A stretch of DNA of 64,000 bases from an uncultured Ardenticatenaceae bacterium. Lineage in GTDB: Bacteria > Chloroflexota > Anaerolineae > Promineifilales > Promineifilaceae. The position numbers and the translations under genes were made by a program. Location: NCBI GenBank assembly GCA_964602995.1, contig CAZRTM010000003.1, positions 17,142-81,141 of the forward strand. Direction: 5' to 3'. Position 1 is the stretch's first letter. Every line of letters begins with the position of its first letter. Under the pieces are notes generated by a model, which was not told the origin of the DNA, did no database searches, and was given only the letters and a program-made list of their open reading frames with translations. Shown here piece after piece: positions 3,917 to 52,583 of the stretch.

Positions 3917-3965
3917 CGATCTGATAAGAGCGTATTAATGTCATTTCCCAGCCAGGAAAAACCTG

Positions 3966-35312: not shown

Positions 35313-36491
35313 TCAGGCGTAGTATGCTTCGAATGGTAGGAGGACGACTTCTTTGGTGCGGCAGGGTGCATCGATGCCCAGTTTGCCGACTACGACATCG
35401 GCCGCTGCTTCTGCCATGCCACGTAGCGTGGTTGCTTTCCCCCCGGTGATGGTGACAAATCCTTCGACCCCCTCATCGCTATGGTCAAAGCATTTGAAGG
35501 TGCGGCTCAGCGCCCGGCCACTATCGGCATCGGCCTGTCGCGGGCCAATGAGGGGGCGAGCGGCCGACCACGCGGCGCGGAACGGTGTCTCATTGACGAG
35601 TGGTATCATCTTGGCTCCTTCATCATACATCAGTTGGATGTGGTCTTCGGGCAAACCCAGAGCGTCGGGATCCTCAACGACCCAGGAGCTGGTGCCAATA
35701 ACTGAGAGGTTGCGCTGGGGAACGATGATGTCACCGTCGCCGGATCTGGTCATGCGATTGATGACCATATTGCACAAACGGCCCTGCAGCGCGACCATGA
35801 CGCCGGGCGAGGGCCGGATCGGCACTTCCACGCCGGCCATGTCGGCGATCTGCCCGCTCCAGGGGCCGGCGGCGTTGATGATGATGTCAGCGCCAATTTC
35901 GTACTCTTTGCCGCGCGCATGATCGATGGCGCGCACGCCCGTGACTGTGTTGCCCTGTTTGACGACGCCAATCACCTCGTGGAAGGGGCGAATGGTGGCG
36001 CCGTTCTGTTTGGCAGTGGCAAAGAAGCGTAGTGGCAGGCGCATGGCGTCCATGGTGGCGTCGGGGATGCGAACGGCCAGAATTGTGTCTGGGTTGAGAT
36101 TTGGTTCCAGGCGCAGCGCTTGCTCTCGGGTCAGCCGTTGTGTGGGAATGCCGCACTCAGCGCATCCTTCCAGAAAGGCGTGGCTGTATTCAACATCCTC
36201 GTCATTGATGGCTACAAAGAGGCCGTCATTTTCCTCGAAAGAGCCAGGAGCGATCCGGCGCAGCGTCATGTTTTCTTCGATGCACTCGATGGCGCTCTCC
36301 TGGTCGTTGACGGCGTAGCGGGCGCCGCTGTGTAACAGACCGTGATGGCGGCCGGTTGTGCCCGCTGTGACTTCATGCCGTTCCAGCAGCGTCACCTTCA
36401 GGCCCCGCAACGCCAGGTCGTGTGCAACGGCTGCACCTGTGCCACCCCCACCCACAATCAGTGCGTGAAATGTTTCCATAGTTTCCCCCAT
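35313..36491 (-). CDS. glpA: GlpA-like FAD-dependent glycerol-3-phosphate dehydrogenase, lacking the C-terminal BFD-type 2Fe-2S domain
   Basis: IVGGGGTGAAVA, TGRHHGLLHSGARYAV and GFVTITGGKATTLRGMAE match E. coli GlpA motifs. The protein is 392 aa, against about 540 aa in E. coli. The second ATG (36479) has the better SD spacing. Confidence 0.85.
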   Translation of the reverse strand: MGETMETFHALIVGGGGTGAAVAHDLALRGLKVTLLERHEVTAGTTGRHHGLLHSGARYAVNDQESAIECIEENMTLRRIAPGSFEENDGLFVAINDEDVEYSHAFLEGCAECGIPTQRLTREQALRLEPNLNPDTILAVRIPDATMDAMRLPLRFFATAKQNGATIRPFHEVIGVVKQGNTVTGVRAIDHARGKEYEIGADIIINAAGPWSGQIADMAGVEVPIRPSPGVMVALQGRLCNMVINRMTRSGDGDIIVPQRNLSVIGTSSWVVEDPDALGLPEDHIQLMYDEGAKMIPLVNETPFRAAWSAARPLIGPRQADADSGRALSRTFKCFDHSDEGVEGFVTITGGKATTLRGMAEAAADVVVGKLGIDAPCRTKEVVLLPFEAYYA

Positions 36492-36520
36492 CCTCGCCTG
36501 TAGCCATGCAGTTCAGTGAG

Positions 36521-36548
36521 ACATCCGGTTTTCCGGAAAAGCGGATGT
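36521..36548. repeat. 28-nt near-perfect palindrome between glpK and the glpA-like gene
   Basis: ACATCCGGTTTTCC|GGAAAAGCGGATGT with one mismatch. On the plus strand it is followed by TTTTT. Confidence 0.7.
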
Positions 36549-36567
36549 TTTTGCCGATAAGAAGGGA

Positions 36568-36601
36568 GGATTTACCATAACAGATCTGTTACGGTAAATC
36601 C
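36568..36601. repeat. 34-nt near-perfect palindrome centred on AGATCT
   Basis: GGATTTACCATAACAG|ATCTGTTACGGTAAATCC, arms 16/17 nt with one mismatch. Confidence 0.7.
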
Positions 36602-36684
36602 TACCCGATTTCTTGACAAACTGCATGCTACTGCTGCTTCTCATGGAGAGAGTCGCAGCGCGCAAGGGGGTTGATGGGTTGAGG

Positions 36685-38217
<1,533 letters not shown>

Positions 38218-38252
38218 CTCCTTACCGGCGTGAATTTCACATTACCGGTTCA

Positions 38253-38885
38253 CTATGCCTCTTTGAGCGTCTCAAGCAACGTCTTTAGCATCAGGTAGGA
38301 TGAGGTTGCTCCCGGATCCTGATGACCAATACTACGTTCTCCGAGGTAACTGGCCCGTCCTTTCTTGGCCTGCAGGGGTATGGTGTCTTCCATGCCCTGT
38401 TCCGCGGCTTGCACGGCCGCCTCCAGAGCCGTTATTGTGTCGTTGCCTTCGCCCAGCGATTTCCGCATGGCGTCCAGCGCCGGCATCCAGGCATCTATCA
38501 TCGTTTTGTCGCCCAATTGAGCGCGTCCACGTTGGATCAGACCATCAACACCGGCCTGCAACAGCGCCGCCAGATCTTCGCCGCTTAGCTCTTCTTTAGC
38601 CGCGGCGGACATGCCGGCGCGCATAAAGAAAGTGCCATAGAGCGGGCCACTGGCGCCGCCGACGCTGGAAATGAGCGTCATACCCGTTGTTTTGAGAATG
38701 TTACCGATGTCTTTATCGGCAACGCCAGGTAGCTTCTCCATCACTTTGTCGAAGCCCCGCTTCATGTTGGTGCCATGATCGGCATCACCAATCGCGGAGT
38801 CTAGCTGCGTGAGATACTCTTTGTTCTCCGTGAGGACACCGGCCAGATTCTTCAACCACTGTACAACTTGGTCCTTGCTTGCCAT
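38253..38885 (-). CDS. dhaL: Dihydroxyacetone kinase, ADP-binding subunit DhaL
   Basis: LTQLDSAIGDADHGTNM and GGASGPLYG motifs. Confidence 0.9.
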   Translation of the reverse strand: MASKDQVVQWLKNLAGVLTENKEYLTQLDSAIGDADHGTNMKRGFDKVMEKLPGVADKDIGNILKTTGMTLISSVGGASGPLYGTFFMRAGMSAAAKEELSGEDLAALLQAGVDGLIQRGRAQLGDKTMIDAWMPALDAMRKSLGEGNDTITALEAAVQAAEQGMEDTIPLQAKKGRASYLGERSIGHQDPGATSSYLMLKTLLETLKEA

Positions 38886-38916
38886 ATCAGAACGGTCCTT
38901 TATTGCCTGAACGAGC

Positions 38917-39990
38917 TTATACGCCCCAACGCAATCCTGGTGTGTTCACTGGCGCATCCCAAAAGCGGAGTATCTCATCATCTGCTTTAAGGAGGGTGAT
39001 CGATGCACCCTGCATTTCCAGAGACGTGATGTAAGGTCCGATCAGATTGCGTACAATCTCGATTCCTCTGTCTTCACAAATCTCGGTTAGTTTGCGATAG
39101 ATGGTGTACAGCTCAGAGACGGGTGTGCCGCCCATGCTATTGACGAAGGCGATGACGCGGTCGCCGGATTGGAACGGCTCGTCAGTCAGTTCCTTATCTA
39201 CCCATTCGCCATTTTCGTTGTCCCATTCACGGACTGTGCGCGAGTAGGCCGGGTCGTCGAGGATTTCGGTGGCCAGTATTTCGGTGATTTCATCAGCCGT
39301 AGTCATTTCCATACGGCGCTGGCCTGGTTCACCGTGGATACCAATACCGATTTCAATTTCGTTTTCGCCCAGTTCAAAAGTGGGTTTGCCGGCGGCAGGG
39401 ACCGTGCAGGAGGTCAGGGCCATGCCCATGGAACGGCCATACTGACTCACTCGTCTACAGAGGTCGGCGCATTGCTCAAGGGAATAGCCAGCTTCAGCAG
39501 CCGCGCCGACGATCTTTTCAGCCAGAACAGTCGTGCCTACACCACGGCGTCCGGCGGTGTAGAGGCTATCTTTCACGGCGACATCGTCGTCGATCAGGAT
39601 CGTCTGAACCTTAATGCCATCGGCATGGGCCAGCTCGGCGGCGGTTTCGAAGTTGAGGACATCGCCAGTGTAGTTCTTGACGATGAACAGGACGCCTTCG
39701 CCGCTGTCTACGGCCTTGGCGCACTCGTACATCTGGTCGGGAGTGGGGGACGTGAAGACTTCGCCGGGGCAGGCGCCGTCAAGCATGCCCATGCCCACGA
39801 ATCCACCATGCATTGGCTCATGCCCACTGCCGCCACCTGAGACAATGGCCACCTTGCCTGCAACTGGTGCATCGGCGCGATAGACATAGTTTGGTTCAAA
39901 ATGGACCTTCAGCATGTCGGGGTGGGCGATGGCCATCCCCTCCAACTGTTCCTTCACGACGTCGTCGACGGCGTTGATTAACTTCTTCAT
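38917..39990 (-). CDS. dhaK: Dihydroxyacetone kinase, DHA-binding subunit DhaK
   Basis: MKKLIN start with SD AAGGAG, plus [16 protein letters not shown] and the NYTGD motif. The ORF track start 40068 is probably too long. Confidence 0.92.
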
Positions 39991-40118
39991 GCTGCGCTCC
40001 TTTAGCTGATTGACCGTTTGATGACGGTCTAGATATGGGTCAGGTAACAGCCTGTGTTCCTGACCCATTATTCAGATTCAGTCGCGATCGTAGTGATTGT
40101 TGGGTCGACTGATTATGG

Positions 40119-40859
40119 TTACGGCGTTGCCAGAATGATAAGGATGCCAGCGAGGATGCCGCCAATGATCGGGCCAACGACCGGAATCCAACTGTAGCCC
40201 CAGTCGGAGTCTCCTTTGCCGGCAATGGGAAGCAGTTGGTGTGCGATACGGGGGCCGAGGTCACGGGCGGGGTTAATGGCGTACCCTGTGGGGCCGCCCA
40301 GAGAAAGGCCAATACCCCACACCAGGGCGCCGACGAGAAACGGTCCCAGACCGTCAACCGGGATGCCCATTGCGGTCGGTGAGCCGGTCATGTCAAATAT
40401 CGCTGCGACGCCCATGACCAGCACGATGGTGCCGACGATTTCAGTAACGGTGTTCCAAATAGGATTGCGAATGGCTGGGGCCGTGGAGAAGACGGCCAGC
40501 TTCAGGCCAGGATCCTGCGTAGGCGCCCAGTGCGGCATGTAGGCGAGCCAGACAATGATCGCGCCGATGATTGCGCCGACCATCTGAGCGATGATAAATC
40601 CTGGTACGTCTCCCCAAGCAAAGTTACCGGCAACAGCTAATCCGACGGTGACGGCCGGGTTGATATGTGCGGCAGAACTTCCGAAGAGGCCGGAAATGAA
40701 GACACCAACCATCACCGCAAAGGCCCACCCCGTGGTTATGACAATCCATCCTGCATTCTGCCCCTTAGATCTCTCCAGCAGTACATTGGCCACAACGCCA
40801 TCACCGAGAATGATCAGGAACATTGTGCCGAACAGTTCACCAAGAAACGGACTATTCAT
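40119..40859 (-). CDS. glpF: Aquaglyceroporin (MIP family)
   Basis: Two NPA boxes (HINPAVT, INPARD) and six TM segments. Confidence 0.92.
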   Translation of the reverse strand: MNSPFLGELFGTMFLIILGDGVVANVLLERSKGQNAGWIVITTGWAFAVMVGVFISGLFGSSAAHINPAVTVGLAVAGNFAWGDVPGFIIAQMVGAIIGAIIVWLAYMPHWAPTQDPGLKLAVFSTAPAIRNPIWNTVTEIVGTIVLVMGVAAIFDMTGSPTAMGIPVDGLGPFLVGALVWGIGLSLGGPTGYAINPARDLGPRIAHQLLPIAGKGDSDWGYSWIPVVGPIIGGILAGILIILATP

Positions 40860-40885
40860 CTTTTCCCATCCTTTTTTCTAACTGG

Positions 40886-40894
40886 TTGTTTCAA
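40886..40894. repeat. TTGTTTCAA motif copy just upstream of glpF
   Basis: Exact 9-mer that is also present at 41234-41242. Its reverse complement is at 41276-41284. Confidence 0.6.
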
Positions 40895-41233
40895 CGTCGC
40901 AACATTCGTCTGCAATCTGTATATCTTCTGATGGTTACTCAGCAGTTACCTCCCTCCTTTCATGATAGCCACAATACCCTGGTGACACAGAGATTGTGGG
41001 ACACGGAACAGATTCAACGAGAAGTACCTCTCCATGATTGAAAAGGTACGAGTTGCGGAGTAGGTTGAACAATGAGGGGTGTGGTGAACACAGCATGTAA
41101 CTCCTCGTAAGATTTGTCACAGCCGGTACCCGCAAACGTGCACAAGAAAAGCGGACGTTGTTGCTGCAGTTGTTACAGCATCCAGTGAGCATTCTGTAGG
41201 ATTTATAGAGGCGATTCAACGGGTAGGGGGAAA

Positions 41234-41284
41234 TTGTTTCAAATTGGAACGAGAGCCAATGAGCTTTGTTTCGGTTTGAAACAA
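41234..41284. repeat. Cluster of TTGTTTC(AA)/TTGAAACAA motifs next to the dhaR-like stop codon
   Basis: TTGTTTCAAA at 41234-41243, TTGTTTC at 41266-41272 and TTGAAACAA at 41276-41284. The last two form a 7-bp hairpin with a 5-nt loop. Confidence 0.6.
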
Positions 41285-41288
41285 GAGG

Positions 41289-43292
41289 TCAGGAGGGAGG
41301 CGTTTTGAATAGATCAGCTTCAATATTGTATTGCTTCATTTTGCGCCACAAGGTTGTACGCCCAATGCCTAGCTGTTCTGCCATCTTTGTTGGCTGCCCG
41401 GCGCAAGCCCAACCTGCGCGGATGATCGCTTCGCGTTCGGCCTCGGCAATGGAGAGGAGGGGCTGCGGTTCGGGCGAGTTCCCCGTGAGCACACGGCCTT
41501 CGCGGACAGGGCGGGGCAGGTCGAAGAGGCGTACGGTACCATCATTACTGTGGTTGAGCGCCCGCTCCAGCACGCTTTCCAGCTCACGCACATTACCGGG
41601 CCAGGGATAGCGGTTGAGGATGGCCATTACGTCGTCGCTGATCCAGGCTGCTCGTTTCTCAGTGCGGGTGATGCGCGCCAGGAATCGTTCAGCCAGAAGC
41701 GGAATGTCCTCTGCTCGCTCGCGCAGGGGCGGAATTGTAATGCTGAATACGCCGAAACGATAGTAGAGGTGGGGCAGAAAGCTTCCTTCTCGCACGCGCT
41801 GTTGAAGGTCGGCAGTGGAGGCGGCGATAATGCGCACATCGACCGGAATGGAGCGGCGGCTGCCCAGGCGCATAATGTGTCCGGTCTCGATGAGGTGGAG
41901 AACGACAGCCTGCATTTCCAGCGACAGGTGTTCGACCTGATCCAGAAGCAAAGTGCCTCCGGCAGCCAGCTCAAATTTACTGGGCCGGCTGTTCCTGTTT
42001 CCTTCCTCGTCGTGGCCCAGGAATTCGCTGATCATCAGCTCGTGAGGGATGGCCTGGCAATTGATGGCGATAAATGGCGCGTCGGCTGGCATACCGTCAT
42101 TGTGGATGGCGCGGGCCAGGTGGTTCTTGCCCACGCCCCCTTCGCCGCGAATCAGCACGGGCGCTGTGCCTCGCGCCGCAATGCGGGCCTGCCGTAGCAC
42201 TGCGCGCATGGCGCCTGACTGACTGGAACTGGCAATGTTGTCCAGGCTGAGGGTAGCCTTCACACCGATTTGCTGGTGTACCAAACGACGCACGTGCTCA
42301 ATCGGGCGCAGCATTACGAGATTGCCAATATAGCGCTGGCCCTCGAAAACAGGGCGCAGGCTGACGAGGCAGTGCGCGCTGTGACCATCCAATTGTAGAA
42401 CGGTATCCACGTCACGCAGCTCTGAGCGGTTGGCGGCAGCATCGGTGATGAGCGACGGGAAGGGCAAAGCCTCTGTGAAAGGTCGGCCCACAATGGAGGC
42501 AGGGTTGAGCTGCAAAATTTCACCAGCCGTGGGGTTGACATGATTGATGATGCCATTTTCGTTCCAGGAGATGATGCCCTCGGAAATGGCGCTCAGAATG
42601 GTTCGTACTTCGGTCAGATGCCTGTTAGCTTCTTCCACAAACCAATCTGTCTGTAACTGGTTGCTGATGGCGCGAGCGGCAGTCATCACCAGACCCAGGG
42701 TGTGTGAGCTGGCATTCTGCACAGAACCGACGATGCCTAGAATGCCAACGAGCGCAATGCGCCCGCGTACGTCGTGAATGGGAGCCGCGGTTGTGGTCAG
42801 CTCATGGTTGGCCTGGAAATAATGTTCAGCTCCTACCACCTGCATAGGCATGGCCGTGATGCGGACCACACCAAGGGCGTTGGTTCCCAACTGTCCTTCG
42901 GACCAGTAGGCACCCTGACCCAGCCCACGCTGTTGTAGAGAGTGCACACGCTGGGGGTCGCCGACGACGTCGAGGACGCAGGCTGAAGCGTCCGCCAACA
43001 GAATGGCGCAATCAGAGCCTTCAATAAATTGGTGGATATCTTCCATAAGTGGGGCTGCCACCCCGATTAGCGTGCTATGGGCGCGCAGGACCCGCTCCAG
43101 GGACGCTTTTTTCAGGCTTTTGGAGTGTGGTTCTGCCTCGTAATCGAGCCGCGGCAGGCAGCGCCGCCACGATTGCAAAACGGCGGGATCCAGGAATTTG
43201 CTTTCTTCAGAGTTGAGCTGTCCGGTTTCGACAAAGGAACGCCAGACCTCACTCAGGCGCTCCCATTGCACAGGATACGCGTCTGGTTGCAT
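41289..43292 (-). CDS. dhaR: DhaR/AcoR-like enhancer-binding-protein-family regulator (GAF/PAS sensor, AAA+ domain, Fis-type HTH), GAFTGA-less
   Basis: Walker A GEGGVGKNHLARAIH, Walker B GGTLLLDQVE, WPGNVRELE, and the C-terminal HTH MAEQLGIGRTTLWRKM. The GAFTGA position reads HDEEGNRNSRPS. Confidence 0.82.
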   Translation of the reverse strand: MQPDAYPVQWERLSEVWRSFVETGQLNSEESKFLDPAVLQSWRRCLPRLDYEAEPHSKSLKKASLERVLRAHSTLIGVAAPLMEDIHQFIEGSDCAILLADASACVLDVVGDPQRVHSLQQRGLGQGAYWSEGQLGTNALGVVRITAMPMQVVGAEHYFQANHELTTTAAPIHDVRGRIALVGILGIVGSVQNASSHTLGLVMTAARAISNQLQTDWFVEEANRHLTEVRTILSAISEGIISWNENGIINHVNPTAGEILQLNPASIVGRPFTEALPFPSLITDAAANRSELRDVDTVLQLDGHSAHCLVSLRPVFEGQRYIGNLVMLRPIEHVRRLVHQQIGVKATLSLDNIASSSQSGAMRAVLRQARIAARGTAPVLIRGEGGVGKNHLARAIHNDGMPADAPFIAINCQAIPHELMISEFLGHDEEGNRNSRPSKFELAAGGTLLLDQVEHLSLEMQAVVLHLIETGHIMRLGSRRSIPVDVRIIAASTADLQQRVREGSFLPHLYYRFGVFSITIPPLRERAEDIPLLAERFLARITRTEKRAAWISDDVMAILNRYPWPGNVRELESVLERALNHSNDGTVRLFDLPRPVREGRVLTGNSPEPQPLLSIAEAEREAIIRAGWACAGQPTKMAEQLGIGRTTLWRKMKQYNIEADLFKTPPS

Positions 43293-43376: not shown

Positions 43377-44111
43377 TTACGTGCCGGATGCTTCTTGCCG
43401 GCAGCCCACGGGCAACTCCCGGTTGCGCTCAAAAACAACATCCATGCCCAGATAGGGAGAGGGATCGACGGTATTGCCAAAGATCAATTCGTTGAGATAG
43501 TTGCCGTCACCATCGTCAAGAACTATCGAGAAGTGGAGGTGTGTCCAGACAGAGCGTACGGGCGAGCCACTGTAATCCCCTGTGTAGCCCAGGAGGGTAC
43601 CTTGCTCGACGAAAAACTCGCGTGTTCCCGGTGCGAAGGCAGGCTCGATAAAGTCATTCTTGCCCGATTTGTCAGCCATATGCGTGTAATAGAGCCAGAT
43701 CTGGCGCTGCGGATTGAGGGGATCCTGGGGGACGCGCTGGATGAGTGTGCTTTTCCAAGTCGGCTCGCGGGTGATGTAACCGTCATAAGCAGCATAGACG
43801 GGCGTGACGCCCGGTTCGCCGTCGCTAAAGATATCTATGCCCTGATGGGGCTGTTCTTCTGAGTAGGGGCCGCCCGGATCGGCGTAGAATAAGCCGATGA
43901 AACCGTCAGCGGGCAAGATAAAGGGAGCGCCAGGGCATGCCTCCCGTTGCACGGTCATCAAGGATTGGCGCACCGCTTCATCACCGCGCCACCAGCGAAG
44001 CAGGGTCTGGCTGCCGGGGCTGTTTAGCCAACGCCAGGCCAACGAGATGAGCACAGCGGCGCCGGCCATGATTGCCAACAAGAGCAGCAAGATTTTCTGC
44101 CGTTGGCTCAT
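43377..44111 (-). CDS. M23 family metallopeptidase with N-terminal membrane anchor
   Basis: HQGIDI (HxxxD) and THLHFSI (HxH) motifs. Confidence 0.85.
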   Translation of the reverse strand: MSQRQKILLLLLAIMAGAAVLISLAWRWLNSPGSQTLLRWWRGDEAVRQSLMTVQREACPGAPFILPADGFIGLFYADPGGPYSEEQPHQGIDIFSDGEPGVTPVYAAYDGYITREPTWKSTLIQRVPQDPLNPQRQIWLYYTHMADKSGKNDFIEPAFAPGTREFFVEQGTLLGYTGDYSGSPVRSVWTHLHFSIVLDDGDGNYLNELIFGNTVDPSPYLGMDVVFERNRELPVGCRQEASGT

Positions 44112-45202
44112 TCAAGCTCCCCGAGATGGATGTGGGCATATTCATTCTCGCAAGGCGGACCATCGCTGACCAACATCGACGCTTCATGGAGGTCGATGAC
44201 GATACTGGTGACCGTCTCGTACTGTTCGTCAACGGGCGCGGAACGGTCCACGTGACGACAAATCGAACGGGGGGGATTGGCATGGTCGCGCAGGGCGTCG
44301 AGAATGTTAGCGACGCTAATCCGTTCATGCTGCTCGAGTTGTGCTTCCATGCGTTCTTGCCGCAGGCATGAGTAGCCACGTATTTCATCTGAAGGTTCCT
44401 GGATGCCCAGTTGGTCTGGATCGATGAAATGGTTGGTGTGCACGAGGCAGCCATTTTGCCAGCCGAGCTGATTGGCGGCGCCTGGGGCGGCTTCGACGTC
44501 AATGGCCTGATCGGGCAGCGCTGCGATGAGGAAGTTGGCCGAACAAGAGATATCACCGCCGCTCGCGGCGCGCACAGCGTCGTCTAATGACTGCTGCTGC
44601 AGAATTTCGTAACAGCGAAGATGGAACGGCCGGCCCAGGCGCGCCCAGTCGTCCTCAGTGGTCGTAATGCCGTTGATGGCCAGGCCCACTCCTGCACTAT
44701 TAAAACCGATCTTGCCGCCGAAGATGCCCGCCTCGGTGAAAGATAAGACTTGATGCCCCTCCGGCGTTTTTGTGTGCAAGAGCGCTCCTGCGACGTCAGG
44801 AATCCAGTCCCAGTTCTGCCCAAGGAGGAGGTGGCCATTCTCGGAACGGGCAGGGGCAACGGCAAAGGCTGTGCAGCCGTCCTGGGCTGCCATTTCTCTA
44901 ACGGCAAATTGGTAATAGAGGATTTCATAGCGCACATTGAGCGCTACGATTTCCTCAAAACTCAATTCTGCACCCTCGGCAATGCCGCGCATGCCATCTT
45001 CATAGTCGCTGTTTTGTTCCTTTATTGCAGCGGCATAACGCCGAGCGCGCTGCAGCACTTCGTCCCTCGTCAGCGCGCCTTCCTGTAGGAAACGGTCGAA
45101 GTAGACCTCGATATTGTGGTGGATGCGCTGCCGCAGTTGCTGACCATGTTGCAGACCCTGTTCATAGGCAGAGCCGCTAAGATGAACGATTGGAAGTGTC
45201 AT
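44108..45202 (-). CDS. Peptidase C45 / acyl-CoA:6-APA acyltransferase family protein
   Basis: N-terminal pro-region followed by the DGCTAFAV nucleophile motif. 4-nt overlap with the M23 gene. Confidence 0.75.
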   Translation of the reverse strand: MTLPIVHLSGSAYEQGLQHGQQLRQRIHHNIEVYFDRFLQEGALTRDEVLQRARRYAAAIKEQNSDYEDGMRGIAEGAELSFEEIVALNVRYEILYYQFAVREMAAQDGCTAFAVAPARSENGHLLLGQNWDWIPDVAGALLHTKTPEGHQVLSFTEAGIFGGKIGFNSAGVGLAINGITTTEDDWARLGRPFHLRCYEILQQQSLDDAVRAASGGDISCSANFLIAALPDQAIDVEAAPGAANQLGWQNGCLVHTNHFIDPDQLGIQEPSDEIRGYSCLRQERMEAQLEQHERISVANILDALRDHANPPRSICRHVDRSAPVDEQYETVTSIVIDLHEASMLVSDGPPCENEYAHIHLGELE

Positions 45203-45386
45203 CGGTTCCCTTCACTACCATCCTGGATGGGTAAATGGCCGCCGGAAGCGGCGGCCCGCAACCACGCTCGTTCAGAAACTTCCGAACGGGTACGGCGCGG
45301 GCCACGGGCTTCACGGTGGTGTGACTCTCATTTGTCTTTAGCATAGCGCGATCAGACAGATCGTTCCAAGTTTCAGGGACCACCAG

Positions 45387-46400
45387 CTAGACAGGTGAGA
45401 CGACTCTCTCAGAATCAGGCTCTTCAGCCTCTGCCTCGTCCCCGTCGTTGACTTCCTTCATGTAATCAAGAGCGGCCGGCAGTGGCTTGAAGCCGAGTTG
45501 CAGGTTTAGCTGGAACATCGGATTGTTCTCTTCGTTATCGGTCACGATCGCGGCGTTGCCATACTCTTGGGCGTAACGAATGGCATGCACCTTCAGCGCG
45601 GTTGCGATACCGCGGCGGCGGTGGCTGCGCGCCACACCGGTAAGCCCTGTTTCCAGCAACTTGCTGTTAGACAGGTTACGCCAGAGGACGCTCAGGCCGA
45701 CATATTTGTCGCCGTCGAGGGCTACAAACCAGGCATCGGGTAGCAAGTTTGGACTACCCAGCGTCTGTTTTTCAAACTGTTCGAAGGGTCGCTTCGTCAG
45801 CGTGTCCGGCGTCGGCACGTCCTGCACCAGTTCCCACTCCAGTTCGTATAGCTTCCGTTTCCATTCGGGATCTTCCTCCCTGAGCTGGGCCATCGTCTTG
45901 ATGGCAATGCCCGAATTGGCTACACGTTCCAGCTTCTCAGCAAAGCGCTCGGCATCGAAAGTCGCCGATTCCAGGCGCGAAACGGGGACGCGCATGACCT
46001 TCTTGTAACCCCGGTTCTCCAGGAAGTGGATGGCATCGGTGAAATGCTCTCTCGTGAAGCTGATCAGGAGGCGCGGTTCTCTCGGCTCCAGCTGTTCAAG
46101 GATGAAATCATACAAGGTGTTGCCAAAGCCCTGGCGTTGCGCTTTGGGATGGACCATCACGCGCACAAAGTATTTGTCTGGTTTGAAGGACCATGTTGTA
46201 TGCCCGTACATACCTACGGCGACGACTTCACCCTCATACTCACCGAGAAGGCGTTGGTGAAGGTACTTTGCATCGCGACTGCGATCGTAGTGCTTCCAGC
46301 CGGTTACTGACGAGGGGATGTCTGGCTCAAGCGCATTGGCGATGGCAACCAGCGCCTCGTAGTCTTTATCGCTTTCGAAATCAAACGGTCTAATCTTCAT
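45387..46400 (-). CDS. Tandem-GNAT N-acetyltransferase
   Basis: Two acetyl-CoA loops (QRQGFGNTL, RRRGIATAL). The likely start is MKIRPF at 46400. Confidence 0.78.
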   Translation of the reverse strand: MKIRPFDFESDKDYEALVAIANALEPDIPSSVTGWKHYDRSRDAKYLHQRLLGEYEGEVVAVGMYGHTTWSFKPDKYFVRVMVHPKAQRQGFGNTLYDFILEQLEPREPRLLISFTREHFTDAIHFLENRGYKKVMRVPVSRLESATFDAERFAEKLERVANSGIAIKTMAQLREEDPEWKRKLYELEWELVQDVPTPDTLTKRPFEQFEKQTLGSPNLLPDAWFVALDGDKYVGLSVLWRNLSNSKLLETGLTGVARSHRRRGIATALKVHAIRYAQEYGNAAIVTDNEENNPMFQLNLQLGFKPLPAALDYMKEVNDGDEAEAEEPDSERVVSPV

Positions 46401-46446
46401 TTCTTTCTCTCTCGACTTCAGTTCAAGCGTGCTGTTCTTACGTTTA

Positions 46447-47109
46447 CTATTCAGCTTTGCGTTCATTACGGCCTTCCTCCATTGCCATTTCTGTCTTATC
46501 TGGCCTCACCCCAAGGGCAGCCAGTTCGGACACCACATCTACACCTGCCTGATAATGAATTGCGGACATACCTACCTCCTTTGCTGCCCTGACGTTGGCT
46601 TCGTTATCGTCGATAAACACTGCTTCTTCGGGTTTGCGGCCCAGTCGCTCCAGCGTCAGCTCATATATTTCGGGAGCCGGTTTCATTACGCGCTCCTCGG
46701 CGGAACAGACAATCAGATCGAAGGCATCGGCAATCGGATAGTCATTGTCTAACGTGAGGCGCAGCCGGTCGGTGGCGTTGCTGATGATTGCCGTCTGGTA
46801 CCGGGGGCGCAGGGAGCGAATGTAGCGCATCAGCTCTTCGTCCAGGACGTCTCCGGCCCAGAAGTCGGTGCGGAACTGTTCCAGATCGTGTTGGGATAGC
46901 CGGAGCTGGTTACCAACCCAGGTCCAGAGCTCCTGGTCTGTGATGGCGCCCGATTGGGCCTTGGTGCCCATATCGTCGGCAATACCAAAGACGATTCTTT
47001 CCGATTCCCATTCGTCCAGACCGAGCCGCTTTTCCCAATCGCGCCGGTAGTTGTGATTATGAGTGCGTATCAGGACGCCGCCGACATCGAAGATAACTGC
47101 CTTGATCAT
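46447..47109 (-). CDS. HAD superfamily hydrolase
   Basis: MIKAVIFDVGGVLI (DxD-type motif I), SNA and a FIDDN-type motif IV. Confidence 0.85.
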   Translation of the reverse strand: MIKAVIFDVGGVLIRTHNHNYRRDWEKRLGLDEWESERIVFGIADDMGTKAQSGAITDQELWTWVGNQLRLSQHDLEQFRTDFWAGDVLDEELMRYIRSLRPRYQTAIISNATDRLRLTLDNDYPIADAFDLIVCSAEERVMKPAPEIYELTLERLGRKPEEAVFIDDNEANVRAAKEVGMSAIHYQAGVDVVSELAALGVRPDKTEMAMEEGRNERKAE

Positions 47110-47149
47110 GATTCCTCCAGTGATAAATTCGTGTTCGGAAACAAAAAAA

Positions 47150-47181
47150 GGACGTGAACACCTACACCGGTGTTCACGTCC
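47150..47181 (-). terminator. Rho-independent terminator (distal of a tandem pair)
   Basis: 13-bp perfect stem GGACGTGAACACC/GGTGTTCACGTCC with a 6-nt loop. On the minus strand it is followed by TTTTTTT. Confidence 0.7.
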
Positions 47182-47228
47182 TTTTGGGGTGGAAGGTCGC
47201 CTGTGGTTGGGCGACAGACAACAAAAAA

Positions 47229-47259
47229 GGCCGCAGACACCGGGTGGTGCGCTGCGGCC
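47229..47259 (-). terminator. Rho-independent terminator (proximal, bidirectional-looking)
   Basis: GGCCGCAG...CTGCGGCC stem flanked by A6 and T5 runs, 21 nt after the stop of the 30-codon ORF. Confidence 0.7.
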
Positions 47260-47279
47260 TTTTTGAGTTCTACTTTATG

Positions 47280-47372
47280 TTAACAGGCCATAGACGCACC
47301 ACGAGATGGATCGGAGTATCCTCCGCCACCTGGCCGAGTCAGTTGAGCGATGACAGTCATTATCTTGTGCAT
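47280..47372 (-). CDS. Unannotated 30-codon ORF (MHKIMTVIAQLTRPGGGGYSDPSRGASMAC)
   Basis: SD AGGAGG, a 5-nt spacer and ATG, with its own promoter upstream and two terminators downstream. It is below the ORF-track length cut-off. Confidence 0.45.
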   Translation of the reverse strand: MHKIMTVIAQLTRPGGGGYSDPSRGASMAC

Positions 47373-47442
47373 GCTCGCCTCCTGGTGCATCTAAGTAAGG
47401 CCAATAATCAATGGGCGCTTCACACGAAGCGCACCGTTGGAT

Positions 47443-47472
47443 ACTCTACCATAGCTGTAAGACCGCTGTCAA
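47443..47472 (-). promoter_or_regulatory. Sigma-70 promoter for the small-ORF transcript
   Basis: Minus strand reads TTGACA-18 nt-TAGAGT. A 7-bp stem-loop (GCGCTTC-gtgt-GAAGCGC) lies at the predicted 5' end. Confidence 0.5.
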
Positions 47473-47625
47473 GGGGGTTACTAGGGCTTTTCCAAAGTCC
47501 GAATTATAGCTCGCTCTGGCCGGTCTCCCGACCGTGCCAGTTGCCATCAACTCGAGACGGGTCGCGCGGTCGGGAGACCGGCGACAGCATCGTTTATGAG
47601 AATGGAAAAGCCCTGAGGGGGTTAC
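47473..47625. mobile_element. MITE-like element: 135-bp inverted-repeat unit flanked by 9-bp direct repeats
   Basis: GGGGGTTAC occurs at 47473-47481 and again at 47617-47625. The terminal inverted repeat is AGGGCTTTTCC (47483-47493) / GGAAAAGCCCT (47604-47614). There is an internal 16-bp perfect stem, GCCGGTCTCCCGACCG / CGGTCGGGAGACCGGC. Confidence 0.4.
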
Positions 47626-47659
47626 GTTCGTGTTTTTTGTTTGATTCCCGTTGTGCTAA

Positions 47660-47688
47660 TTGACAGTGACAGGGCGCTCGGCTATAGT
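47660..47688 (+). promoter_or_regulatory. Near-consensus sigma-70 promoter, about 250 nt upstream of slyD
   Basis: TTGACA-17 nt-TATAGT. Confidence 0.6.
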
Positions 47689-47940
47689 CACTTTTACAAG
47701 ACGTTGTAAGTTCTGCCACGGAACACGCTACCGCTCAGATCTACATGTCCGGGCGGTTTTTTTATTTTTACTTGCAACGTGCTTGTGCTTAAAAGAAGAA
47801 GCTCGACGAACAAGCTGGCGTAGAGGCGCATGAGCAAGCCTTGTAGAGCGATTTGGCAAATCGCCTTGCATGACAGTGCTGAGATGGCAGGTTGTTTGTA
47901 AATCTCGGAAAAAGAAGTCTTCAGCAAGGAGTAAAACGAA

Positions 47941-48482: not shown

Positions 48483-48532
48483 GGTCTGATTAGGCCTGGT
48501 TACGTCTGGTTAGACCTGATCACGCCTGATCA
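48483..48532. repeat. Five in-phase tandem 10-bp degenerate repeats
   Basis: GGTCTGATTA GGCCTGGTTA CGTCTGGTTA GACCTGATCA CGCCTGATCA. The last unit contains the stop codon of the downstream convergent gene. Confidence 0.7.
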
Positions 48533-50245
48533 TTCGTCGAGAAGAATAACCGGTTCCTGGTAGTAACGAAGACGGCTACGCGCCAGCTTTTCGGCCAGGA
48601 ACTGGTTAAACCATACGCGTTTGGCTGCCAGCGGTTCATCCGCCTTTAGCCGTTCCAGATCGGCATTGAGGCGCAGGATGCGCCCGGGAATTACGAAGCG
48701 CGTAAGCCCTGCCGGCAACAGTTTGCTCTGACTGGCCTGTTCGAAGACAACCTCAGGCTCGAATTGCGGAAAGACTGCCAGTGCTTTCAGGTCGGGAAAT
48801 TGTCCCTGTAAACGGGAAAGCTCAGTAAGCAACGTTCTCTCTACCGTTCCCCATTTTGTATAACAACTGACAAGCTGATTCATCAGCCGCAAGCGTTTGT
48901 GCCTATCTTCCACTTCAATGAGCGTGGCATTGCCGTCACAATCTAAGAGGTAACAGAGAGCGCCGCTTTCGCGGAACACAGATTGCACATCTTCGGCGGG
49001 AAGGGCGGTGAACCTCAACCCTTCTATCGTTTGTAGATGGGCAAACAGCTCTTCGACCGGCTTATCACTGGAAATCACGTGGTACCAGGTGTGCAGGTCA
49101 AAGTCGTCGCGGTGGGGATCGACGACCTGGACGATGATGTGTGGGTAGCCCAGGCGCTTGAGGGCTGTAAAGCGAGTAGCGCCATCGAGGATGATGTACT
49201 TGTCGTCCCAGCGCGTGACGATAGGTGGATTGATCAGTTTGGCTTCATTTTGCAGCCGTTCCATCAGCCGCGTAACTCGCTTCTCGTCAATCTCCTCGTG
49301 CGGCATCACCTGTTCTATGGGCACCAGCTCCAGCGAGAGCGTTTCGCTGGGCCGTTTCACCCGCAACCACCTGAGCACCTGCTGCGCTATGGAAATGGAT
49401 GCCTCGCGACGGTGGTCGCCGATAATGACCGTCGCGTGGGGAGCCACAATTACGCGCTTGTGCTGGCGAACGAGGTCAGATTCCTCGCTACGTAGACGTT
49501 CGATCTGGTTCGGATATTCAGGAACGGCGGCGCCCGCCAACCATCCCTCATTCAGCGCCTGTAGGAGGGCTGAGTCATCGACCAGGTCGGTATGGCCGGT
49601 GTTGATCAGGTAAGCTGACGGCTTCATCTCCCGCAGCTCGGCCTCTCCGATCAACGTTTCTGTTTCTGCTTTAAACGGTACGTGAAGGCTGACGAAATCA
49701 GCGCGTCGCAACAACTCTACGAAATCGGTTGCGGTGACGCCAGCGTCCAGAGCCAGTTCGGGCGTGAGGCGTGGCTGGTTGACAATGACGTTCATATCAA
49801 AGGCCAGCGCCCGGCGCGCGACCTGGCGGCCAATGAGACCAAAGCCGATGATGCCCAGCGTCTGGCCCGAAAGGCGTCGCGCCCCAGCCCCTTGCATTGT
49901 CAGGCGCAACATGAGGGTCAGAGTGTGTTCGGCAATGGCTACGGCGTTACTGCCCGGGCTGTTACGGACCTCAATGCCCATAGCGCGCGCGGTTGTGACG
50001 TCTATGTTGTCGAGGCGCGGGCCGGCGCACCCAATAACGCGCAGGTTTAAGCCTTCCTCGATAATATCGTGTGTAATTCGACGCCGTGGTCCAACGACAA
50101 GGCCGTGATAGCCGCCAATTCGTTCCTGTATCTCACGTGTCGTGAGTTCTGGTAGCAGGTCAACGTCAGCTTTTTGCCGGAGGATCTCTATACCGTCTGG
50201 ATGTATCGAATCGCAGATAAGGACACGAGGACGATCTGTCATCAC
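48530..50245 (-). CDS. Fusion protein: D-2-hydroxyacid (phosphoglycerate) dehydrogenase-like domain plus ParB/Srx-fold domain
   Basis: The N-terminal roughly 300 aa has the NAD fold GIIGFGLIGRQVA and an APH histidine motif. The C-terminal roughly 270 aa has ParB/Srx-type motifs (PHEEID..., ILDGATRFTAL). Confidence 0.75.
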   Translation of the reverse strand: MMTDRPRVLICDSIHPDGIEILRQKADVDLLPELTTREIQERIGGYHGLVVGPRRRITHDIIEEGLNLRVIGCAGPRLDNIDVTTARAMGIEVRNSPGSNAVAIAEHTLTLMLRLTMQGAGARRLSGQTLGIIGFGLIGRQVARRALAFDMNVIVNQPRLTPELALDAGVTATDFVELLRRADFVSLHVPFKAETETLIGEAELREMKPSAYLINTGHTDLVDDSALLQALNEGWLAGAAVPEYPNQIERLRSEESDLVRQHKRVIVAPHATVIIGDHRREASISIAQQVLRWLRVKRPSETLSLELVPIEQVMPHEEIDEKRVTRLMERLQNEAKLINPPIVTRWDDKYIILDGATRFTALKRLGYPHIIVQVVDPHRDDFDLHTWYHVISSDKPVEELFAHLQTIEGLRFTALPAEDVQSVFRESGALCYLLDCDGNATLIEVEDRHKRLRLMNQLVSCYTKWGTVERTLLTELSRLQGQFPDLKALAVFPQFEPEVVFEQASQSKLLPAGLTRFVIPGRILRLNADLERLKADEPLAAKRVWFNQFLAEKLARSRLRYYQEPVILLDE

Positions 50246-50307
50246 GTATTCTCAAAAACAAAATTTTCTACCAGGGGGCAAGGCTGCGATGCTAATCAGC
50301 TGCGATG

Positions 50308-51279
50308 TTAATCAATCTGGGGCAATTGTATCTTCAGGAGATCTACATTGCCGCCGCTGAGGAGGACGCCAACCCGTTTGCCGCTGACCGGATAGCGGCC
50401 CAGAAGAGCGGGAGCGAGCGCCACAGCGGCACTCGGTTCTACCACAATCTTCATACGCTGCCATATAAATTGCAGTGTCTCTGCAATATCGCGCTCACTG
50501 ACCGTGATCATATCATGAACGTACTTCTGCATCACGGCGAGATTGCGCCGGCCAATGAAGCGGGTCCGCAGCCCATCGGCGATGGTGTCGGGGACGGCGT
50601 CTAGCTCCACAATGCGACTCAAACGCCAGGAGCGGCTGGCGTCGTCGGCCGTTTCAGGCTCCACGCCGATGACATGGCAACCGGGCGCGCGCAGGGCGGC
50701 AGCAAGGGCGCTGCCGCTGATCAAGCCCCCGCCGCCAACAGGGACAAAAAGGAGGTCAAGCTCTCCGGCTTCGTCAATCAGCTCAAGCGCTGCTGTTCCC
50801 TGCCCGGCGATAATGTGGTCGTTGTCGTAGGGGTGAATAAGTGTGTAGCCATGTTCGGCGACTAGCTGTGCGGCCACTGCCTCACGTTCGGCCGCTGCGC
50901 AGGAGATGATTTCGGCGCCGTAGCCTGCGGTGGCATCGCGCTTAATCTGCGGGGCATCGGCGGGCATGACGACCACCGCGCGGACATCGAGTAGCGCGGC
51001 TGCCAGAGCCACCCCCTGTGCGTGGTTGCCGCTGGAGTGGGTGATGACGCCGGCAGCTCGCTGGGGTGCGCTTAACCTGCTGATGGCGTTGTAGGCGCCG
51101 CGAAACTTGAACGCTCCAACCCGTTGGAAGTTTTCACATTTGAGGAATACGCGGGCGCCACTCTGCCTGTCGAGCGTGCGCGATGTCATGACCGGCGTGC
51201 GGTTGGCTACGCCTCGCAAGCGGTCAGCGGCCTGCAAGACGATTTCAGGACTAAGCGTAACAGTAGACATTTCAGACAT
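50308..51279 (-). CDS. PLP-dependent serine/threonine dehydratase (serine racemase-like, fold type II)
   Basis: PLP-lysine motif NFQRVGAFKFRGAYN, HSSGNHAQG and the glycine loop VGGGGLISG. Confidence 0.88.
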   Translation of the reverse strand: MSEMSTVTLSPEIVLQAADRLRGVANRTPVMTSRTLDRQSGARVFLKCENFQRVGAFKFRGAYNAISRLSAPQRAAGVITHSSGNHAQGVALAAALLDVRAVVVMPADAPQIKRDATAGYGAEIISCAAAEREAVAAQLVAEHGYTLIHPYDNDHIIAGQGTAALELIDEAGELDLLFVPVGGGGLISGSALAAALRAPGCHVIGVEPETADDASRSWRLSRIVELDAVPDTIADGLRTRFIGRRNLAVMQKYVHDMITVSERDIAETLQFIWQRMKIVVEPSAAVALAPALLGRYPVSGKRVGVLLSGGNVDLLKIQLPQID

Positions 51280-52165
51280 TTTCAGATATTTCGCCTTTGT
51301 GCCAGCCTGTCATATCTTTGACCATTTCCACCCGTCGGAAGGCGTCAAAGTAGCCTGCCTGTTGGAAGCCAGACCAGCGTGGATCACCATCAGGCACATT
51401 CTCGGCGATGGCGTCCTGAGTCGGGTAATATTCGTGTAGTGATTGGAGGATTGTCTTTGTGACTCGCGCCGGTTCCCCTTCCAGCACACAAACAACGATG
51501 CGCGACAGGCGCAGGAGGCTGGATTTATACGTCACCCAACCGCGTCCACCATCCTCCGTTTCGACCAACAAGGAGGACAGCTCGGGAACATTGCAGAGTG
51601 ACTCGGTCTGGTTTAGCCAGTTTGGCTGGTCATTGCGGTTGGCCAATAGTTTGAGCGTTGCCTCATAGCCCAGGGTGCGCACATCAGCTACTTGCGGACG
51701 TACACTATGCTCGCCGGGTTTGAAGGCGCGGAAGGTAGGGGGGCGACGGGCAACGATCAGCTCGCGAGTTTTCTGGAAACCCAGGTTCAGGAAAAGTTCG
51801 TGAGCAGGGCCATTGCCTTCAATCACTTCCAGCCAGACCACGGGCAGCTCTTTGCAAGCGGCGGCATCGAGCAGGAAATGCATGATGCGGCTGCCCACTC
51901 CCTGCCGGCGGCCCGAGGGTAGAACACCTAGCCGCGTAATCCAACCCCGCCCTTTGCGCACACCGAGCATGCCAATTCCCAGAATTTCCCCGTCGCGCAC
52001 GGCGGCACAGGAACAGGAGAGGTCTACATCATAGACGTGGATGTAGCTACGAAGCCGTTCCACAGTCATAGGCATGGGCACGATATAATCAATTCGGGTT
52101 TCGTTGTAGGCCTCAGCTAGCTCTTCCAGGCTAAATTCTGTGGCTCGAATCAGCTCCATGTTCAT
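51272..52165 (-). CDS. GNAT family acetyltransferase with C-terminal extension
   Basis: Acetyl-CoA loop RRQGVGSRIM. 8-nt overlap with the dehydratase start. Confidence 0.72.
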   Translation of the reverse strand: MNMELIRATEFSLEELAEAYNETRIDYIVPMPMTVERLRSYIHVYDVDLSCSCAAVRDGEILGIGMLGVRKGRGWITRLGVLPSGRRQGVGSRIMHFLLDAAACKELPVVWLEVIEGNGPAHELFLNLGFQKTRELIVARRPPTFRAFKPGEHSVRPQVADVRTLGYEATLKLLANRNDQPNWLNQTESLCNVPELSSLLVETEDGGRGWVTYKSSLLRLSRIVVCVLEGEPARVTKTILQSLHEYYPTQDAIAENVPDGDPRWSGFQQAGYFDAFRRVEMVKDMTGWHKGEISENV

Positions 52166-52211: not shown

Positions 52212-52583
52212 CTACAGCGCCGGTGTTAAGTACCGGGCGATCTGTTTCGGGAAATTGCGGACGCTGATTGGCTTAATGATAATGCCGTCGTAACCATACT
52301 TTTCACACATTTCACGTGCGATGTCTGCCGGCCAGGCGGTGATTGCCACCAGGGGAACATCCTCCAATTCAGGAACTTGTTGCAGCAAGGTGACAACGGT
52401 ATGACCATCGATGTCTGGAAGCCCGATATCAATAAGAACCAAGTCTGGCGCGGTTTCGACAGCTAACTGAATACCCGATTCCCCATCGGGAGCATGCACA
52501 ATCTCGTAACCGCTGGCCTGTAGGACGCGTTCTACGAGAATGACATTTTCAAGGCTGTCTTCGATGAGCAGGATTGTTTTCAT
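52212..52583 (-). CDS. Stand-alone response-regulator receiver protein
   Basis: LLIEDS, DLVLIDIGLPDIDG (phospho-Asp) and a conserved T/K region. No output domain. Confidence 0.9.
   Translation of the reverse strand: MKTILLIEDSLENVILVERVLQASGYEIVHAPDGESGIQLAVETAPDLVLIDIGLPDIDGHTVVTLLQQVPELEDVPLVAITAWPADIAREMCEKYGYDGIIIKPISVRNFPKQIARYLTPAL

Follow-up and report, generated by a model that had tools for sequence, protein, structure and literature searches.

The gene described here occupies positions 48530-50245 on the reverse strand of the window, that is, the whole 64,000-nucleotide stretch that was analysed (positions 17,142 to 81,141 of contig CAZRTM010000003.1, assembly GCA_964602995.1), from an uncultured Ardenticatenaceae bacterium of the Chloroflexota. 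Its product is predicted to be a two-domain enzyme: the C-terminal domain would be a kinase that converts L-serine to O-phospho-L-serine (OPS), and the N-terminal domain the remnant of a dehydrogenase that now acts as a non-redox scaffold or sensor. On the basis of sequence comparisons and structural models, a probability of about 0.68 was assigned to this reading. The open reading frame (ORF) starts with GTG, has ATG as its second codon, and is divided as follows.

48530-50245, reverse strand: whole ORF of 571 residues, a domain derived from D-3-phosphoglycerate dehydrogenase (PGDH) fused to a SbnI/SerK-type kinase domain.
49355-50245, reverse strand: residues 1-297, remodelled D-2-hydroxyacid/phosphoglycerate dehydrogenase fold, with a substrate lobe and a nicotinamide adenine dinucleotide (NAD)-type lobe.
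48533-49348, reverse strand: residues 300-571, predicted free-serine-kinase domain (NCBIfam, phmmer against the PDB, AlphaFold2 model, Foldseek).

All the motifs quoted in the initial annotation of this DNA were located in the translation: GIIGFGLIGRQVA at residues 131-143, VIVNQP at 153-158, NTGHTDLVD at 215-223, GAAVPE at 238-243, PHEEID at 315-320 and ILDGATRF at 352-359. Profile searches with Pfam, as that annotation had proposed, and with NCBIfam placed the N-terminal half among dehydrogenases and the C-terminal half with SbnI and SerK. Residues 304-570 matched the NCBIfam model of SbnI (O-phospho-L-serine synthase) at 4e-25 over model positions 7-253 of 254, and residues 299-411 matched the archaeal ADP-dependent serine kinase SerK at 6e-15. 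With Pfam the C-terminal half gave only ParB_N (PF02195; E = 0.017, 15.6 bits against a cut-off of 26.3) and GmrSD_N (0.034); as ParB_N is below threshold, the kinase is missed by Pfam alone, and NCBIfam together with a structure search is needed to find it. When the C-terminal 267 residues were compared with PDB sequences by phmmer, significant matches were obtained only with SbnI (3e-16) and SerK (4e-7).

Full-length and kinase-only models were predicted with AlphaFold and compared with the PDB using Foldseek. Because the full-length model returned only dehydrogenases, the second model was built for residues 300-571, from an alignment of 77 diverse homologs (predicted local distance difference test score 95.3). 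In this domain a ParB/sulfiredoxin-like N-terminal subdomain (residues ~300-392) is followed by a C-terminal subdomain (~393-571). The nine best matches were all SbnI or SerK (E 1e-14 to 6e-20), with alignments of 237-272 columns that span both subdomains and TM-scores (TMt) of 0.76-0.85; by family, TMt was 0.82-0.85 for SbnI and ~0.8 for SerK. ParB, Noc and sulfiredoxin were matched at E ~1e-4 only, over ~75-135 residues of the N-terminal subdomain, so that the model resembles SbnI and SerK about ten orders of magnitude better than it does any of these. The motifs that carry the assignment are the following.

49286-49303, reverse strand: P315-H-E317-E-I-D320 motif, holding Glu317, which corresponds to SerK Glu30 and SbnI Glu20.
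49169-49192, reverse strand: I352-L-D354-G-A-T-R358-F, the DGxxR motif, in which Asp354 corresponds to SbnI Asp58.

In the alignment with Staphylococcus pseudintermedius SbnI and Thermococcus kodakarensis SerK (Tk-SerK), respectively, P315-H-E317 falls on L-H19-E20 and P28-H29-E30, D354-G-A-T-R358 on D58-G-V-H-R and D-G-H-H-R, and H-T-W387-Y on S-W-H and T-W-Y. The kinase activity of SbnI needs Glu20 and Asp58 (Verstraete 2018, as cited in PMC9641203), and position 30 is substituted in PDB entries 5x0j/5x0k (E30Q) and 5x0e/5x0g (E30A). The ParB/sulfiredoxin-type signatures pointed out at the outset are genuine, and they overlap the catalytic motifs of free serine kinases. Conservation was counted over 121 family members at no less than 57% identity. 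The P, H, E and D of the PHEEID motif are invariant in 121/121, the H and E also across the 77 diverse homologs, and LDGATR, with Asp354 in it, is invariant too. Against a 90%-identical relative (L090), the ratio of non-synonymous to synonymous substitution rates (dN/dS) was 0.107 for the kinase domain. The C-terminal domain is accordingly best described as a predicted full-length free-serine kinase of the SbnI/SerK type. The initial annotation had spoken of a serine or phosphoserine-related kinase or ligase module; the kinase is upheld by the end-to-end alignment with SbnI and the match to SerK, and the ligase found no support.

The N-terminal domain was examined by the same searches and by alignment with 1WWK, the short PGDH of Pyrococcus horikoshii, and other solved PGDHs. 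The positions that define it are listed below.

49868-49948, reverse strand: residues 100-126, shortened inter-lobe helix and linker (alignments; helix 100-118 in the model).
49829-49846, reverse strand: G134-F-G-L-I-G139, retained GxGxxG dinucleotide-binding motif (alignment).
49769-49780, reverse strand: N156-Q157-P158-R159 in place of YDP, with Gln at the position of the NAD-ribose Asp; invariant in the clade.
49592-49594, reverse strand: codon of His218, at the catalytic-Arg position (His in 121/121; INTARGG in canonical relatives).
49436-49438, reverse strand: codon of His270, at the kept catalytic-His position (APHAT against TPHIG; 120/121 in the close clade).

Residues 8-273 matched Pfam 2-Hacid_dh_C (PF02826, 3e-40) and 2-Hacid_dh (PF00389, 2e-20), and residues 7-317 the NCBIfam PGDH model TIGR01327 (4.5e-61; 207 bits, under half the 454-bit cut-off), in comparison with which no ASB or ACT region was found. 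The best PDB match was 1WWK, both by sequence and with Foldseek (7e-28); by sequence and by structure the half is closest to PGDH, as the proposed fusion to a SerA-like domain had it. His218 aligns with the Arg of NTSRG/NAARG (the position of Arg240 in E. coli and Arg236 in the human enzyme), and the LDV of GAALDV has become VPE; both replacements had been suspected from the letters. The whole LDV..EP of canonical PGDH reads VPEYPNQIER, within a catalytic-Glu/LDV region (AAVPEYPNQIER) that is variable and gapped across the family. The arginines of the PGDH anion site are also gone (VRS to VGP, GRAG to GCAG), and, relative to canonical PGDH, the inter-lobe helix has lost 13-17 residues together with its G.W.K segment. 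What has been kept is the GxGxxG motif (G134, F135 and G136 invariant, G139 in 114/121), LHVP and His270, although the last position is lost in several more distant degenerate fusions. The suspicion of altered or lost dehydrogenase chemistry is borne out in that the hydride-transfer residues have gone from a domain whose closest family is PGDH.

A further substitution had been read as a sign of lost activity. In VIVNQP the NAD-ribose Asp of YDP is indeed replaced, by Gln157, and NQPRLTPE is nearly invariant in the family. The NQPR(L)TPE motif is present, however, in relatives with an otherwise fully canonical dehydrogenase, so the D-to-Q change is a lineage trait and not inactivating, and lost NAD binding was rejected as an explanation of it.

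Over residues 1-300 dN/dS against L090 was 0.054, lower than for the kinase domain, and many columns are invariant, including those of GxGxxG; the domain is maintained by strong purifying selection and is not decaying. Gone are the catalytic Arg, the Glu/LDV region, half of the helix between the lobes and the arginines that bind phosphate, yet the GxGxxG fold is conserved; the domain is therefore most likely a non-redox module.

The distribution of the family was determined at several depths. A word-indexed search returned >100 close clusters, all from Chloroflexota metagenome-assembled genomes (MAGs), which are annotated publicly only as 'NAD(P)-dependent oxidoreductase', 'phosphoglycerate dehydrogenase-like' or 'PLP-dependent enzyme', PLP being pyridoxal phosphate. 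About half of these are proteins of ~910 residues in which a PALP domain stands ahead of the dehydrogenase-like and kinase domains. An exhaustive HMMER search with the kinase domain gave 1035 representatives at E <= 1e-3, mostly stand-alone proteins of ~275 residues, together with fusions of 530-605 residues and a class of ~390 residues. Relatives occur in 307 species-representative genomes; taxonomy and loci were taken from the best 80 of them, which belong to Ardenticatenaceae, Promineifilaceae, Caldilineaceae, Anaerolineae and, in one case, Roseiflexaceae, all Chloroflexota. The architecture recurs in >100 protein clusters and 307 species-level genomes, and purifying selection acts on each half, which rules out an artefact of assembly or a frameshift. 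Four representatives (P0126, P0156, P0128 and P0149) come from short contigs that reveal little of their surroundings, and P0126 and probably P0122 are apparent contig-edge fragments of fusions, not true stand-alone genes. In another protein, P0259 (438 residues), a Prok-JAB (JAMM-type) domain is found at the N-terminus of the SbnI/SerK-like kinase domain.

The fusions fall into three classes. In class A (for example L063, L073, L077, L079, L082-L085 and L003-L005) the dehydrogenase is fully canonical, with a 31-residue linker containing G.W.K and with INTARGG, ALDVF..EP and TPHI(A/G); the Pfam 2-Hacid_dh_C match covers positions 1-178 of 178 (1e-58 to 1e-64), and NQ(P/R/T)R already stands in place of YDP. 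Class B, which includes the window gene, has a linker of 14-21 residues, His for the catalytic Arg, and no LDV. In class C (~390 residues; P0145, P0157, P0154, P0144, P0134; locus L089:1958-3127) a clean excision has removed the whole NAD-binding domain, so that the protein consists of the substrate lobe, the last dehydrogenase helix and the kinase. Loci L042, L043 and L049 (class B') hold second, paralogous remodelled dehydrogenase-kinase copies and come from the MAGs that also contain L037 and L017; the second copies read INTGHAG, and their catalytic His is replaced by Tyr (TTPYQT).

Unfused relatives were also found in tight operons with gaps of 3-15 nucleotides, which comprise a class-V (AGXT-type) aminotransferase, a canonical short PGDH carrying YDP or FDP, and a stand-alone kinase (L105:581-3368, L106:2932-5822, L107:1195-4241 and L109:7-2207), that is, a serC/serA-like pair with the kinase at serB's place. 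The same AGXT-type class-V aminotransferase precedes class A fusions in four loci (L003, L063, L065 and L073); the aminotransferase of the canonical loci scored 227 bits as BhcA-like and only 88 bits with serC_3. In a rough and simple neighbour-joining tree of kinase domains, computed without support values, class B forms one clade nested among class A, with deep stand-alone proteins outside. Comparison of these loci shows that the most economical history would have begun with an operon of class-V aminotransferase, canonical PGDH and kinase, continued with a PGDH-kinase fusion in which the dehydrogenase was still canonical, and ended with remodelling of the dehydrogenase and recruitment of a serine-racemase-type PLP enzyme.

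That PLP enzyme is encoded directly upstream of the window gene, in a region with the following features; the window's neighbours were also compared with all loci by tBLASTN.

50246-50307, reverse strand: spacer of 62 nucleotides between the PLP gene and the dehydrogenase-kinase gene; an in-frame linker in most relatives.
50308-51279, reverse strand: fold-type II PLP enzyme of the serine racemase/dehydratase family, 323 residues (PALP 3e-77).
51272-52165, reverse strand: GNAT acetyltransferase, 297 residues (Acetyltransf_1 4e-14; generic NCBIfam matches only).

The closest structure to the PLP protein is the serine racemase of S. pombe (1V71, 7e-94). The protein keeps the Schiff-base Lys (FKFRG) and the HSSGNH motif with its second-base serine, and scores 435 bits with the model of threo-3-hydroxy-L-aspartate ammonia-lyase PRK07048, just below the cut-off of 452. 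In 58/58 class B loci with a detectable PLP gene, a homolog of 64-73% identity is either fused to the dehydrogenase-kinase gene or immediately precedes it in the same orientation, and at no class A locus was the PLP gene found by tBLASTN. The remodelled form and the PLP enzyme are thereby shown to be coupled, strictly so apart from L042, L043 and L049. Fused ORFs of 847-1021 residues account for ~47/58 of the PLP-linked loci and separate genes for ~11; in most relatives a linker at the position of the spacer yields a single protein of ~910 residues. The functional unit extends past 48530-50245 to this upstream gene and, as the PLP domain is part of one fused protein in the basal members of class B, the split layout in the window is probably a secondary fission. 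The stop of the GNAT gene overlaps the start of the PLP gene by 8 nucleotides, which couples the two in translation, and a GNAT homolog lies upstream of the PLP gene in ~44/58 loci. Just upstream of the GNAT gene, both in the window (52212-52583, reverse strand) and in L002, is a single-domain response regulator.

Other neighbourhoods associate the kinase family with OPS. The stand-alone kinase is directly downstream of TrpB2 in eight contigs (L087, L088, L091/L092, L094 and L096-L099; in L096, for example, TrpB2 at 3530-4900 and the kinase ORF at 5001-5825), and in L105 TrpB2 is upstream of the aminotransferase-PGDH-kinase genes. The L091 kinase lies within a trpC-F-B-A-trpS operon, whose TrpB2 passes both PRK12391 (724 bits, cut-off 366) and TIGR01415 (637 bits, cut-off 519). 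TrpB2 is described as a tryptophan synthase that uses OPS in place of serine (Busch 2014, as cited in PMC11917138), and its adjacency suggests that the stand-alone kinases provide it with a dedicated OPS supply. In L093:6001-9506 a stand-alone kinase homolog stands immediately upstream of genes for chorismate mutase, DAHP synthase and prephenate dehydrogenase, a position that connects the family a second time with aromatic amino-acid biosynthesis. The aminotransferase-PGDH-kinase neighbourhoods mirror those of archaea: in Desulfurococcales, Makino et al. found serK beside genes for PGDH and an aminotransferase, and they proposed that serine is converted first to OPS, then to 3-phosphohydroxypyruvate and finally to 3-phosphoglycerate (PMC5120207). 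Together, the TrpB2 neighbours and these operons lend independent genomic support to the handling of OPS by the kinase family. Phosphoserine-requiring, tRNA-dependent cysteine synthesis by SepRS/SepCysS, known from Chloroflexi (PMC5424206), was considered as a context and rejected, as it belongs to Dehalococcoidia and has no link to the gene. No serC, serB, cysK or other serine-pathway genes occur elsewhere in the window.

From these data a mechanism can be proposed. The C-terminal domain is likely to transfer a phosphoryl group from a nucleotide, probably ATP, to the side-chain hydroxyl of free L-serine to give OPS, with Glu317 as the putative catalytic base and Asp354 in the nucleotide/Mg site. 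The N-terminal domain descends from a short (type III) PGDH and has most likely abandoned the original reaction; it plausibly serves in oligomerisation or docking, as a scaffold, or as a sensor of a dinucleotide or other metabolite. The PLP enzyme and the kinase may share one serine pool and might cooperate in either of two ways. In one, the PLP enzyme would supply L-serine by D/L interconversion and phosphorylation would render the flux irreversible; in the other, it would consume the OPS made by the kinase as an activated substrate.

The second way can be put forward only tentatively, by analogy with TrpB2, SbnA and the OPS sulfhydrylases. To our knowledge, the hydroxy-amino-acid kinases described so far (SerK, SbnI, ThrB) all supply a PLP enzyme of fold type II; with TrpB2 found here in the same gene order, the use of OPS is a possibility on the lower side of even. 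ATP would here activate the serine hydroxyl for a PLP-dependent beta-replacement, beta-elimination or racemisation within one self-contained machine. In it the former dehydrogenase would have taken on a new role, as an allosteric sensor, a scaffold or a channel; the product, which the co-transcribed GNAT enzyme might acetylate, would be a metabolite so far unassigned in Chloroflexota. If this were true, the stand-alone kinases would be the missing OPS suppliers of TrpB2-type tryptophan synthases.

The most serious competitor of a non-redox remnant, though an unlikely one, is a dehydrogenase-like domain that is still an oxidoreductase, with a new chemistry carried by His218 and His270 instead of the Arg/Glu/His triad; it might reduce the product of the PLP enzyme, such as 2-iminopropionate/pyruvate from serine or OPS, and so form a three-step pathway. 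The conservation of both histidines, the retention of GxGxxG and NQPR and the dN/dS below that of the kinase domain would all fit, as would the exact coincidence of the remodelling with the acquisition of the PLP enzyme, and a precedent exists in the kinase SbnI, which works together with SbnA, a PLP enzyme of fold type II, and the NAD enzyme SbnB. However, the domain has lost its nicotinamide-anchoring Asp in LDV, the Glu that pairs with the His, the arginines for substrate binding and half of the hinge helix between the lobes, and distant members drop the His or the whole NAD domain and keep the kinase, which argues that the lineage can dispense with redox chemistry.

It is improbable that the kinase runs in reverse and replaces phosphoserine phosphatase (OPS + ADP/AMP to Ser + ATP/ADP), the module then making serine for conversion to D-serine or pyruvate by the PLP enzyme. 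The position of the kinase at serB's place, beside serC-like and serA-like genes in the unfused operons, would be explained, and the GapMind 2026 preprint puts forward such a dual role for the 'SerBK' proteins of the unrelated DUF1015 family, whose genes adjoin serA. The same preprint estimates K at ~4e-4 for the reverse reaction, which makes it thermodynamically unfavourable; moreover, adjacency to the OPS-consuming TrpB2 fits OPS supply better, and in the clade of the window gene the dehydrogenase that starts serine synthesis has been inactivated.

Phosphorylation of another hydroxy substrate (D-glycerate, threonine, homoserine or 3-hydroxyaspartate) would place the ancestral operon in the non-phosphorylated route from serine through hydroxypyruvate and glycerate to phosphoglycerate. 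The AGXT-type aminotransferase of the canonical loci comes from a family that includes serine-glyoxylate aminotransferases, the D-2-hydroxyacid dehydrogenases include hydroxypyruvate reductases, and the kinase scores under the equivalog cut-offs. Nevertheless this is a distinctly improbable alternative: both characterised members, from archaea and Firmicutes, are specific for free L-serine (PMC5120207, in what it reports on the archaeal one), the canonical dehydrogenase domains bear the anion-site arginines of PGDH (VRS, ARAG) and not GRHPR-type motifs, the recurrent TrpB2 adjacency points to OPS, and the fold-type II PLP partner works on amino acids, not glycerate. A ParB-like DNA-binding regulator, a nuclease or defence module, or an artefactual fusion, as might be read from the weak ParB_N and GmrSD_N matches and from the additional role of SbnI as a transcriptional regulator, is scarcely credible for a C-terminal half that has no helix-turn-helix or dimerisation domain, resembles ParB, Noc and sulfiredoxin structures in one subdomain only, has no meaningful PADLOC match, and belongs to an architecture found in 307 species genomes under purifying selection on both halves.

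Several points nonetheless weigh against a free-serine kinase joined to a non-redox remnant, as favoured here. The kinase domain is ~23% identical to SbnI and 18-19% to SerK, and scores 88.6 bits with NF033589 (SbnI, cut-off 350) and 55 bits with NF053625 (SerK, cut-off 380); with identities this low and scores so far below the equivalog cut-offs, substrate and nucleotide could differ, and a recent paper reports binding of CTP, not ATP, by a SerK-like protein (PMC12704722). By these scores the domain is a distinct subfamily within the free-serine-kinase fold family, an equivalog of neither SbnI nor SerK. The invariant His218, the near-invariant His270 and the very low dN/dS would also fit a catalysis that is retained but altered. 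The remodelled dehydrogenases of L042, L043 and L049 have no upstream PLP gene and coexist with a PLP-linked copy, and it is from linkage that the roles of the PLP partner and the GNAT enzyme are deduced. The roughness of the tree has to be counted here as well.

Among known systems the closest is SbnI of Staphylococcus aureus and S. pseudintermedius, an ATP-dependent free L-serine kinase that makes OPS for staphyloferrin B synthesis. The window protein resembles it in the two-subdomain full-length fold, the whole-model profile match, the shared motifs H-E (Glu20), DGxxR (Asp58), (S/T)W and C-terminal PAG(V/L)TRF..GR..L, and the genetic coupling to a fold-type II PLP enzyme. It differs, besides the low identity and sub-cut-off score, in being fused to a dehydrogenase-derived domain outside any siderophore cluster, in having a serine-racemase-type and not a CysK-like (SbnA) partner, and in showing no sign of a heme- or DNA-binding regulatory role. 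With the ADP-dependent SerK of T. kodakarensis (TK0378) it has in common the fold, the P-H-E with catalytic Glu30, DGxxR and TWY, and Desulfurococcales serK clusters with PGDH and aminotransferase genes as the unfused and class A bacterial loci do (PMC5120207); SerK is, however, archaeal, and the PGDH of the window gene is covalently fused and, in its clade, catalytically remodelled.

The dehydrogenase half has the two-lobe fold, GxGxxG, LHVP and catalytic His of the short (type III) PGDH 1WWK, and departs from it in the Arg-to-His218 change, the loss of Glu/LDV and of the VRS/GRAG arginines, NQP for YDP, the shorter inter-lobe helix and the low TIGR01327 score. The DUF1015 'SerBK' proteins are likewise proposed serine kinases of SbnI-like structure, tied to serA and to serine use or synthesis via OPS (GapMind 2026 preprint), but are encoded by a separate gene next to a canonical SerA; the window protein is fused and has no DUF1015 match in Pfam. 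The PLP partner shares the PLP lysine, SSGNH and overall length with the serine racemase/dehydratase of S. pombe and mammals, from which it differs in being fused or tightly coupled to a kinase and a pseudo-dehydrogenase. In the literature searched, no PGDH-SerK/SbnI fusion and no serine-racemase-linked version was described, in keeping with the earlier remark that no characterised member was known; nor was a paper found with both 'TrpB2' and 'serine kinase', the source of the TrpB2 substrate not having been tied to a dedicated kinase. The text and supplements of a 2025 survey of the ParB-CTPase fold contain no 2-Hacid_dh or PALP fusion. The novelty lies in the architecture and evolution of an enzyme whose kind is already known; the system is not new as a category.

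The remainder of the window was surveyed for context. No Rfam family was found in it, and hence no riboswitch or leader was identified; a promoter and terminator scan gave matches no more often than chance. On the reverse strand at 35313-43292 lies a glycerol/dihydroxyacetone utilisation cluster (DAO-family FAD oxidoreductase, FGGY glycerol-type kinase, Dak1 and MIP channel), adjoined by a GAF-PAS sigma-54 activator. It is followed at 44108-47109 (reverse strand) by genes for a C45-family autoproteolytic acyltransferase/hydrolase, a double-GNAT protein and a HAD-IA phosphatase (46447-47109), the order of which is syntenic with L002, where several more GNAT genes occur. Between the HAD gene and a SlyD-like FKBP gene, ~780 nucleotides (47110-47890) contain no convincing ORF and fall within the segment of lowest guanine-plus-cytosine content in the window (0.524); in the close relative L090 a transposase-like gene is found beyond the FKBP gene.

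We know of only two characterised free-serine kinases, the archaeal SerK and the staphylococcal SbnI. The family described here would add a large bacterial branch, of ~1000 clusters at 50% identity, in which public annotation misses the kinase entirely. It also offers a stepwise record of enzyme evolution, from an operon through a bifunctional fusion to a conserved pseudoenzyme with a new PLP partner and, elsewhere, full excision of the NAD domain. Pathway-gap tools of the GapMind type flag missing serB steps, and the kinase family may be relevant to such gaps; its stand-alone members may be the source of OPS for TrpB2 tryptophan synthases. The Chloroflexota abound in wastewater, soils and sediments, and they may make use of serine by way of O-phosphoserine.

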